A DNA stretch of 64,000 bases from Alphaproteobacteria bacterium. GTDB lineage: Bacteria; Pseudomonadota; Alphaproteobacteria; Rs-D84. Position numbers and translations under genes: made by a program. The notes beneath the pieces are model-generated. The model was not told the DNA's origin. It made no database searches and saw only the letters and a program-made list of their open reading frames with translations. Every line of letters begins with the position of its first letter. Within the stretch, counting starts at the first letter, position 1. The stretch spans positions 3,184 through 67,183 of the forward strand of contig JAFZXK010000006.1 in NCBI GenBank assembly GCA_017616785.1, written 5' to 3'. This document shows positions 21,091-21,345 of this stretch, one piece after another.

Positions 21091-21345
21091 TTACATTTAA
21101 TCTGTTTTTTGGTATAATTACACTTGAATCAGGTGGGAACCTGGCTCTGGGCTGTCGTAGGCCTAAATCCGTCGGCACATTATGTCGTAATCCGCAAAAT
21201 TTCCGATGTTTTGTGCCGTCATTCTGATTACCCCGGTTGTTGGTCGGGGTGCCTGGGGGCGTATATAAAAAGGCCACAGGAATCATTACGGATTTGATTT
21301 ACGAACACCCCGACCGCTTTGGTTTCCCAAGGCGGCGTTTTTATA
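21091..21345 (+). promoter_or_regulatory. Promoter (TTACAT-16 nt-TGgTATAAT) plus ~220-nt structured leader ending in an intrinsic terminator (copy 2 of the family)
   Basis: The -10 lies at 21113-21118. Hairpin 21230-21236/21244-21250 competes with a perfect 10-bp helix at 21242-21251/21306-21315. The terminator is 21314-21322/21327-21335 plus a T-run. The blocks TGAATC, GGGCTGTcGTAgGCC, AATCCGCaAAAT, CTGATTACC and CCCCGACCG are shared with 4120-4352. Confidence 0.55.

Follow-up and report, generated by a model that had tools for sequence, protein, structure and literature searches.

A structured leader RNA with a built-in terminator and two predicted alternative folds in gut Alphaproteobacteria

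The leader RNA at its locus

The window analysed here, i.e., the whole stretch of 64,000 nucleotides at positions 3,184 to 67,183 of contig JAFZXK010000006.1 (assembly GCA_017616785.1, an alphaproteobacterium of the Rs-D84 lineage), carries two copies of a leader RNA, the second of which (copy 2) lies between rpmG (20844-21017) and a two-gene unit whose products begin with signal-peptide-like N-termini. The leader is confirmed as a real, previously uncatalogued structured RNA of about 215 bases with a built-in terminator, and comparative sequence evidence indicates that it probably serves as an mRNA 5′ leader acting as a riboswitch-like conditional transcription terminator (attenuator). Since rpmG has its own terminator (21045-21065), the leader forms a separate transcription unit.

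The original prediction, drawn from the DNA letters alone, had proposed a promoter at this locus followed by a local hairpin, a 10-bp long-range helix sharing one arm of that hairpin, and a terminator; a check of the copy 2 sequence located every one of the listed elements as described. The promoter matches 11 of the 12 consensus positions in addition to its TG extension, and transcription is predicted to start at about 21125, ~7 nt past the −10 box. The local hairpin joins ACCCCGG (21230-21236) to TCGGGGT (21244-21250), the perfect 10-bp long-range helix joins GGTCGGGGTG (21242-21251) to CACCCCGACC (21306-21315), and the terminator hairpin has a calculated energy of −15.5 kcal/mol. The open reading frame (ORF) at 21360 begins about 20 nt past the T-run, too close for a separate promoter to fit in between.

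The signal goes well beyond chance. The transcript of copy 2 is more stably folded than shuffled controls (z = −3.6), as is that of copy 1 (z = −6.7), whose long-range helix is formed by GTCGGGGAGT/ACTCCCCGAC and which is followed by a 117-aa ORF (4367-4720). The two copies are only 49% identical in the structural alignment; a covariance model built from relatives (R1) scores them at 147.3 bits (copy 2) and 149.5 bits (copy 1), with E about 1e-40, bearing out the claim that they share one architecture. A search of the whole 64 kb with R1, run with filters off, returned exactly these two copies and nothing else. A third window copy was considered for a 15.8-bit match at 12185-12406 and rejected, the stretch being a convergent terminator pair with TAGTG repeats. 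The features of both copies are collected in Table 1.

Table 1. Coordinates of the leader RNA, its predicted structural elements and the genes that follow it, in window positions
Feature	Position	Strand	Remarks
Copy 1 of the leader RNA	4097..4348	+	Promoter TTGACT-17-TAAAGT 4097-4125; structured domain 4131-4324; terminator 4318-4341, then T-run
Sigma-70-type promoter, copy 2	21090..21118	+	−35 TTTACA 21090-21095, 17-nt spacer, TG-extended −10 TATAAT 21113-21118
P0, 5′-terminal hairpin GAAUCAGGU-GGGA-ACCUGGCUC	21126..21147	+	GNRA tetraloop 21135-21138
Segment a, UGGG (GGGG in most members)	21148..21151	+	Pairs with CCCC of segment d in fold A
P1 5′ strand, UCGUAGG	21155..21161	+	Pairs with 21298-21304 UUUACGA
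P1b 5′ strand, AAAUCCGU	21165..21172	+	Pairs with 21288-21295 ACGGAUUU
P2 hairpin, CGGCAC...GUGCCG	21173..21218	+	Variable length
Segment b, ACCCCGG, 5′ arm of local hairpin P3a	21230..21236	+	Rivals segment d for segment c
Segment c, GGUCGGGGUG, shared arm	21242..21251	+	Pairs with b (fold A) or d (fold B)
sRNA-Xcc1-like 3′ domain	21242..21317	+	Outer helix c:d around P3b and the GAAUCA/UGAUU hairpin; R2 60.8 bits, E 1.4e-11
P3b hairpin, CCUG...CAGG	21252..21280	+	Conserved loop GUAUAUAAAAAG; most relatives insert a P3c hairpin
GGAAUCA (21279-21285) and UGAUU (21295-21299), both conserved	21280..21299	+	5-bp hairpin of fold B, with the P1b 3′ strand as its loop
Segment d, CACCCCGACC	21306..21315	+	Pairs with c (putative antiterminator helix) or a; last bases in the terminator stem
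Intrinsic terminator, copy 2	21311..21342	+	Stem 21314-21335 CCGCTTTGG/CCAAGGCGG, extendable to 21311-21337; T-run 21338-21342
First gene of the putatively regulated unit, 119 aa	21360..21719	+	Signal-peptide-like N-terminus MKKTLFILFMVMVCNAATAAV; no Pfam match
Second gene of the unit, 269 aa	21730..22539	+	Signal-peptide-like N-terminus

The surroundings of copy 2 are otherwise ordinary: a tRNA gene (20673-20754, minus strand) lies just upstream of rpmG and the leader, and anaerobic ribonucleotide reductase genes on the minus strand (22706-25717; nrdG-like 22706-23407 and nrdD-like 23645-25717) run convergently to the two-gene unit. The window also holds runs of four to six [T/A]AGTG units spaced 6-7 nt apart (e.g., TAGTGGTTAGTGTTAGTGTAAGTGATTAGTG) at 21015-21045 (+), 12183-12219 (+), 12378-12401 (−) and 61266-61296 (+), three of the four being placed right between a stop codon and an intrinsic terminator. 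A comparable run occurs 3′ of the RNA in locus L037, and these runs look like a repeated protein-binding or 3′-untranslated-region motif.

The family and its two conserved folds

A pattern formed by two blocks common to copies 1 and 2, scanned against contigs of one genome per species, occurs at 45 places, 35 of them in gut metagenome-assembled genomes (Candidatus Enterousia, uncultured Alphaproteobacteria and Rickettsiales) and the remaining 10 being high-GC chance matches. A second pattern, taken from the 3′ half only and forcing neither the 5′ motif nor CCCCGACC, added 47 loci, namely 44 metagenome contigs and three contigs classed as viral in IMG/VR; the whole RNA is present on nearly all of these. 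With R1, 68 distinct strong matches of 55-191 bits were obtained, among them additional copies in the L007 and L008 flanks, which neither pattern had selected. The members of the family, at least 68 distinct sequences in all, come from gut metagenomes and from gut Alphaproteobacteria with reduced genomes (Candidatus Enterousia and relatives). Enterousia is placed in the order Rs-D84 and has genomes of about 0.75-1.0 Mb (PMC12306168). One contig with a family member also encodes an alphaproteobacterial (permuted, two-piece) tmRNA (L093:3619-3976, minus strand, 165 bits), which independently supports an alphaproteobacterial origin of these contigs. The two copies in 64 kb, along with three copies in total, variant classes included, in the 8-kb locus L031, suggest by extrapolation that there are many copies per genome.

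An Rfam scan of the whole window at gathering thresholds found tRNAs only, and permissive scans with Rfam 15 of both copies and of relatives yielded nothing relevant except sub-threshold sRNA-Xcc1, with no family at threshold. Thus, the Rfam check and the search of relatives that the original prediction had recommended gave no catalogued family and 68 distinct members; its claim of a novel RNA holds in so far as no Rfam family reaches threshold, but has to be narrowed for the 3′ half, which is distantly related to sRNA-Xcc1 as described below. BLASTN of copy 2 against plasmids and phages gave no match, and no description of the leader RNA was found in the literature on Enterousia, Rs-D84 riboswitches and gut alphaproteobacterial riboswitch candidates. 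Short words reminiscent of cobalamin and ydaO riboswitches (GAAUCC, GUAAGC, CCCGAC) were set aside since neither Rfam model matches. Members measure 169-229 nt, and all three residues modulo 3 are about equally represented among their lengths, which marks the region as non-coding; a longer coding sequence in relatives, which the original prediction had named as a finding that would count against it, is not borne out.

Minimum-free-energy folds of 35 members agree on one architecture, designated fold A, which consists of P0 with its GNRA loop, a:d, P1 (UnGUARG/UUUACn′A), P1b, a variable P2, b:c (P3a), P3b and an often inserted P3c. In a model-based alignment of 68 sequences, fold A is 94.6% paired over its 59 pairs, 44 of which show compensatory changes; its covariation score of 0.512 compares with 0.189 for shuffles (0/500 of which reach 0.512) and at most 0.085 for slid controls. 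In a MAFFT alignment, which is not fitted to the structure, fold A is 90.8% paired and scores 0.41. A conserved structured 5′-untranslated-region domain with covariation, one of the generic features of a riboswitch, is thereby present in this family.

The evidence is spread over the individual helices. All 9 pairs of P0 show compensatory changes (94.9% paired), and its loop reads GGGA, GAGA, GAAA or GGAA in most members; the AATCAG/CTGATT helix of the original prediction finds no support, AAUCAG being the 5′ arm of this conserved hairpin. In P1, the variable pair n:n′ (alignment columns 52:336) is C:G in 35, G:C in 17, A:U in 9 and U:A in 7 sequences and unpaired in none, and two copies found by the model alone add the P1 compensatory changes UAGCU/AGCUA and GAAAA/UUUUC. 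The pairing AAATCCGT/ACGGATTT put forward by the original prediction corresponds to P1b, which has very strong covariation: its 9 pairs all show compensatory changes, they are 97.4% paired, and most positions take all four Watson-Crick types. The proposed CGGCAC/GTGCCG pairing likewise turned out to be the covarying base of P2, a hairpin that differs widely in length among members and has compensatory changes at 9/10 pairs. P3a (b:c) is 93.1% paired, the base of b opposite n being unpaired in 21/68 sequences, and in the P3b/P3c region (helices 6 and 7) all 11 pairs show compensatory changes. An 11-nt tetraloop-receptor reading of the P3b loop is not claimed, its sequence not being canonical. 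A small hairpin, GGCU/AGCC, returned by RNAalifold was rejected as a part of fold A since it conflicts with P1, whose n:n′ pair takes four Watson-Crick types; it may form in fold B.

Fold B is defined by the long-range helix c:d, which comprises nine pairs (GUCGGGGnG with Cn′CCCCGAC) and is paired in all 68 sequences bar one cell; RNAalifold picked it unprompted from the MAFFT alignment. The compensatory A-to-T/T-to-A swap noticed between the two window copies generalises to the family, in which the variable pair n:n′ of c:d is A:U in 37, U:A in 16, G:U in 14 and C:G in 1 of the 68 sequences and unpaired in none. The competition for the shared arm is likewise a family trait: b:c and c:d are both conserved, and c:d overlaps the base of the terminator, as had been proposed for copy 2. 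The second hairpin of fold B, GAAUCA/UGAUU, is 98% paired and nearly invariant in sequence.

Weaker model matches represent variant classes with the same architecture and different c and d sequences. In class II, c and d read GGUUGGAG with CUCCAACC, b:c is CUCCAA with UUGGAG, and P1 differs; in class III, c and d read GGUCGGGAU with GUCCCGACC (GGGAU with GUCCC), and a:d is GGGA with UCCC (L095). Segment b thus changes in step with c in both classes, as does segment a in class III (L095), and these joint changes indicate that the mutually exclusive helices b:c and c:d are both kept by compensatory change. The variant loci score only 15-29 bits (L075:146-302, L031:7058-7210, L031:6293 to about 6470, L095:11362-11589 and L079:536-773, all on the minus strand). 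Taken together, the comparative data show that folds A and B, which exclude each other, are both conserved via compensatory changes.

Two further forms of the element were observed. One subtype differs at the 5′ end, where P0 is often replaced by two hairpins, and has a CUCUCCGACCAC tail and a larger P3c; it occurs in gut bacteria and in three IMG/VR-viral contigs (L050-L052, L056, L057, L063, L069, L077, L079, L081, L083, L089 and L094-L096); the gene that follows it in L051 and L063 encodes a product that starts with an FGHRD motif and is DUF1273/SLOG-like by eye only. At L061:777-864 (minus strand), only the 3′ domain is present, comprising b, c, P3b, GAAUCA, d and the terminator but no P0-P2 domain; this copy scores 80 bits with the 3′-domain model R2 described below. 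It follows immediately on a gene's stop codon and might represent either a truncation of the element or its reuse as an ordinary terminator.

The terminator is conserved with the domain. About 63/68 members have a terminator hairpin and a U-run, with calculated hairpin energies of −8.5 to −15.5 kcal/mol, and the stem starts at G, A or C within the GACC at the end of segment d. The same GACC bases pair with c in c:d, such that formation of c:d would block the bottom 2-4 terminator pairs beside the U-run; c:d accordingly reads as an antiterminator, and mutually exclusive terminator and antiterminator pairings, with b:c competing for c, are present at the sequence level. The calculated energy of fold A plus terminator is −85 kcal/mol for copy 2 and −96 kcal/mol for copy 1, compared with −79 and −83 kcal/mol, respectively, when c:d is forced in a nested fold. 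By this calculation, the two states would be alternatives of similar stability, with termination as the default.

Promoter and gene are likewise positioned in a fixed manner around the domain. A −10-like hexamer stands at a fixed distance in 61/67 members, mostly 4-5 nt before the first alignment column, and each of the 60 cases with enough flank has a downstream ORF on the same strand that possesses a ribosome-binding site and starts about 40-50 nt past the domain and 15-30 nt past the U-run. The locus of the 119-aa gene of copy 2 is also found on four metagenome contigs. The link to exported or membrane proteins that the original prediction had sensed is borne out: by a simple hydrophobicity rule applied to N-termini, 42/60 first ORFs (70%) begin with a signal-peptide- or lipoprotein-like sequence, against 15/54 (28%) of the background of 54 window ORFs (Fisher p = 1.2e-5). 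This is the only trend among the downstream genes, whose Pfam matches include Flg_new (6), BspA-type LRR (2) and DUF805 (2) as well as single cases of RgpF, polysaccharide pyruvyl transferase, ankyrin, PEGA, TRL, EcoRI methylase and HNH. As a side observation, GGGG-rich ribosome-binding sites occur within 22 nt upstream of the first ORF at 26/60 family loci and 10/43 window genes (p = 0.04); their complementarity to the CCCC of b and d weakly hints at an extra translational layer, which is not used in the argument.

Kinship of the 3′ half with sRNA-Xcc1

sRNA-Xcc1 (RF02221) was described as an 88-nt trans-acting sRNA giving a ~88-100-nt Northern band in Xanthomonas (PMC2996969), and it has since been reported upstream of symE in integron cassettes (bioRxiv 10.1101/2025.06.18.660453) and upstream of an ORF6N gene in APSE phages (bioRxiv 10.1101/2020.03.17.996009). 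In the permissive scan, RF02221 matches copy 1 at 25.5 bits exactly on the stretch from c to d, and the same stretch of the relatives L058 and L093 at 38.4 and 29.7 bits; it matches neither copy 2 (E<=10), which is without P3c, nor L016. All of these scores lie below the gathering threshold of 53 bits, verified members scoring 69-73 bits.

In the reciprocal direction, the matches are significant. A covariance model of the 3′ domain of the family in its c:d-closed fold (R2), which scores copy 1 at 73.7 bits, was applied to four Rfam-verified sRNA-Xcc1 elements (69-73 bits) from Pseudomonas, Aeromonas, Nitratidesulfovibrio and Neisseria records, and it recovered 4/4 at their annotated positions (L099 41.7, L098 33.3, L097 26.7 and L100 25.3 bits; E 2.6e-7 to 1.4e-3). 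The full-length model R1 has no match at the four verified loci, from which it follows that they are without the 5′ domain.

The two elements share several features, namely an outer helix, GC-rich and ~9 bp long, around two hairpins in a three-way junction, a nearly identical helix sequence (GgCcGGggG/CccCCgGcC in sRNA-Xcc1, GUCGGGGnG/CnCCCCGAC in the leader), a second hairpin where the leader has GAAUCA...UGAUU, and a location directly upstream of same-strand accessory genes. In the alignment of copy 1 to sRNA-Xcc1, an AUACAA...GAA loop around an inner GC hairpin corresponds to P3b/P3c. This AAUACAA...GAA loop appears in copy 1 and most relatives as UAUAnAAnA-GGG..CCC-nAAAG; copy 2 keeps only GUAUAUAAAAAG, with no inner hairpin. 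In the 3′-domain alignment of 35 sequences, c:d is 100% paired and both P3b and P3c covary. Unlike sRNA-Xcc1, the leader possesses an extra 5′ domain of ~100 nt (P0, a, P1, P1b, P2 and b) that would be able to re-pair with the Xcc1-like part, and a separate intrinsic terminator; its Xcc1-like domain is the 3′ part of a ~215-nt unit with a promoter ~120 nt upstream, no stand-alone unit of ~88 nt being predicted. By these model matches and shared elements, the 3′ half of the leader is a distant relative of sRNA-Xcc1 to which the 5′ ~100 nt are an addition. The most fitting classification of the leader is as a composite, enlarged variant with kinship to sRNA-Xcc1 and a proposed cis role, and as a non-member by the Rfam criterion.

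Three of the four verified loci (L098, L099 and L100) are directly followed by a same-strand ORF, their elements lying about 40-50 nt upstream: a BRO-family gene after L100:1498-1580, an ORF6N/antirepressor-like gene after L098:1485-1569 and a hypothetical protein gene after L099:1482-1572. L098 and L099 each contain a hairpin that overlaps the outer helix of sRNA-Xcc1 on its 3′ strand. The proximity of ORFs and the overlapping hairpins suggest that sRNA-Xcc1 itself may be cis-acting. The remaining locus, L097 (a Neisseria gonorrhoeae record), has a verified element at 1485-1570 (68.8 bits) in tandem with a weaker one at 1709-1780 (33.9 bits) in an unannotated stretch. A stand-alone Xcc1-like leader was also found at L057:290-376 (+; Rfam 27 bits, R2 24 bits), on a contig that also has a full-length copy (6498-6726). 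This leader shows the same overlap between its outer helix and a terminator (CCCAC...GUGGG plus U-run), and the gene that comes next is a signal-peptide ORF.

A proposed conditional terminator and alternative readings

In the proposed mechanism, which we consider probable, transcription would start ~7 nt past the −10 box and produce a domain of ~190 nt with two mutually exclusive folds. In fold A, P1/P1b would close a four-way junction of P2, b:c and P3b, and segment a (GGGG) would lengthen P1 by pairing with the CCCC of d; GACC would then be free, the intrinsic terminator would form, and transcription would stop about 20 nt before the start codon. In fold B, c would leave b and make a helix of 9-10 bp with d, closing a three-way junction (c:d, P3b and GAAUCA/UGAUU) that resembles sRNA-Xcc1; the GACC needed for the bottom 3-4 terminator pairs would be taken up, and RNA polymerase would read through into the gene. 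A cellular signal, either a small molecule or ion or possibly a protein, is presumed to shift the balance between the folds; the switching itself, its direction and the type of its trigger are inferred from the conserved mutually exclusive pairings. We favour a switch in which the signal would turn on the gene by stabilising the c:d junction, since the calculation makes fold A plus terminator the more stable state, with termination as the default, and since c:d is the best-kept helix, and leaders that consist of the domain only have no other competition than that between c:d and the terminator.

This design recalls the ON-type terminator riboswitches (ZTP/pfl, fluoride/crcB and Mn2+ yybP-ykoY), in which the ligand-stabilised helix shares few bases with the terminator; the long-range helix c:d of the leader similarly overlaps the 5′ base of the terminator by a few nt, and its calculated default is termination. 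It differs from them in the lack of any sequence or model match, in its much larger size, and in its decoy hairpin b:c and alternative four-way junction.

Several observations weigh against the conditional-terminator reading. The overlap of c:d with the terminator amounts to only 2-4 nt, and its sufficiency for antitermination is assumed; alongside P1/P1b, fold B would be a pseudoknot, for which the energy is only roughly estimated. The a:d pairs (alignment columns 44-47 with 341-344) are for the most part invariant G:C (G:U in 3, A:U in 1), and this helix has little independent support. The near-invariance of GAAUCA/UGAUU means that covariation gives no test of the fold B hairpin, and since a resembles c and b resembles d, the complementarity of one pairing partly follows from that of the others. 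Moreover, sRNA-Xcc1 is described as a discrete trans-acting sRNA and not as a cis element (PMC2996969). A coherent theme was also sought among the downstream genes, with the result that 37 Pfam families are represented, mostly once each, and most genes have no Pfam domain; in view of this lack of a common metabolic theme, no ligand can be deduced.

The polarity of the switch might also be reversed, with fold A (b:c and a:d) as the ligand-bound aptamer, its ligand bringing about termination (an OFF switch), and c:d as the default antiterminator. Many terminator-type riboswitches are OFF switches in which the ligand-bound aptamer terminates, and fold A holds most of the covariation as well as most of the conserved junction nucleotides (GCC, GUUAU, GAAUCA and the GNRA-capped P0) that suggest tertiary packing. 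Nevertheless, this reading is rather doubtful, given that fold A plus terminator already lies 6-13 kcal/mol below the nested c:d fold, so further stabilisation would add little, that c:d is kept better than any other helix, and that only a c:d-type helix competes with the terminator in L057:290-376. The terminated ~215-nt transcript could alternatively be functional in itself, as a multi-copy trans-acting or protein-sequestering sRNA related to sRNA-Xcc1, with read-through being incidental. The original prediction had offered an independent sRNA as its alternative, and the kinship with sRNA-Xcc1, for which a ~88-100-nt Northern band is on record in Xanthomonas (PMC2996969), keeps it alive, as do a promoter and a terminator that bound a discrete transcript. 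What makes it unlikely is that all 60 ORFs lie 15-30 nt past the U-run with no promoter room and hence depend on read-through, that paralogues of 49% identity diverge strongly in all single-stranded and loop stretches with the potential to serve as a seed, and that verified sRNA-Xcc1 elements also stand directly upstream of same-strand genes (here and in bioRxiv 10.1101/2025.06.18.660453).

The multi-copy occurrence (two in 64 kb here and three in L031), the adjoining accessory, restriction-modification and phage-like genes, and the carriage of sRNA-Xcc1 in integron cassettes (bioRxiv 10.1101/2025.06.18.660453) would suit a mobile or selfish intergenic repeat, either MITE-like or a portable promoter cassette, with the hairpins as terminal inverted repeats. 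The window copies, however, are ~49% identical and still keep every helix by compensatory changes, which argues for selection on RNA structure and not for recent transposition; the element is always upstream of and co-directional with an ORF, its promoter and terminator keep fixed positions, and no terminal inverted repeats or target duplications were seen, so a mobile repeat is very improbable. Least credible of all is a leader-peptide (ribosome-mediated) attenuator or a stretch of some longer coding sequence. The 1:2 / 2:3 / 3:4 logic of classical attenuators does recur in segments b, c, d and the terminator arm, b:c plus d:terminator-arm versus c:d being the same competition of anti-antiterminator, antiterminator and terminator as in trp-type systems, and an in-frame TTG at 21237 would lengthen the ORF of copy 2. 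In contrast to trp-type attenuators, the leader has no leader peptide and its competing segments lie inside a large covarying domain; its lengths are even modulo 3 with no conserved short ORF, its helix sequences vary freely provided that pairing is kept, and the signal peptide of copy 2 starts at the ATG at 21360.

Among known riboswitches, c-di-GMP-I (GEMM-I) also occurs in many copies per genome, in front of heterogeneous genes for surface, secreted and unknown proteins and in phage-like DNA, and has a GNRA-capped hairpin. The leader resembles it in being multi-copy, in its varied downstream genes, in its occurrence in phage-like DNA and in a GNRA-capped hairpin that suggests a tetraloop contact, whereas it has no Rfam match and a different fold and size. 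We tentatively propose, as a possibility that we would not yet favour, that the leader senses a global signal (a second messenger, an ion or a partner-derived metabolite) and that its dozens of copies make up the principal regulon of accessory surface and secreted proteins in the ~0.9-Mb, regulator-poor Rs-D84 gut symbionts; under the same proposal, the sRNA-Xcc1 elements found on integron cassettes, plasmids and phages would not be trans-acting sRNAs and would represent the smallest aptamer form of one widespread, unrecognised riboswitch superfamily.

If the conditional-terminator reading is true, the leader would represent a large RNA class absent from Rfam, with at least 68 members, heavy covariation and an unusually clear pair of alternative folds. 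sRNA-Xcc1, annotated as trans-acting on integrons, plasmids and phages, appears from these comparisons as the core of a cis-acting leader family, and such a cis role is directly testable in culturable Xanthomonas or Aeromonas. For the gut symbionts themselves, with genomes of ~0.75-1.0 Mb, a multi-copy leader in front of secreted and surface proteins may be the principal control of the interaction surface.

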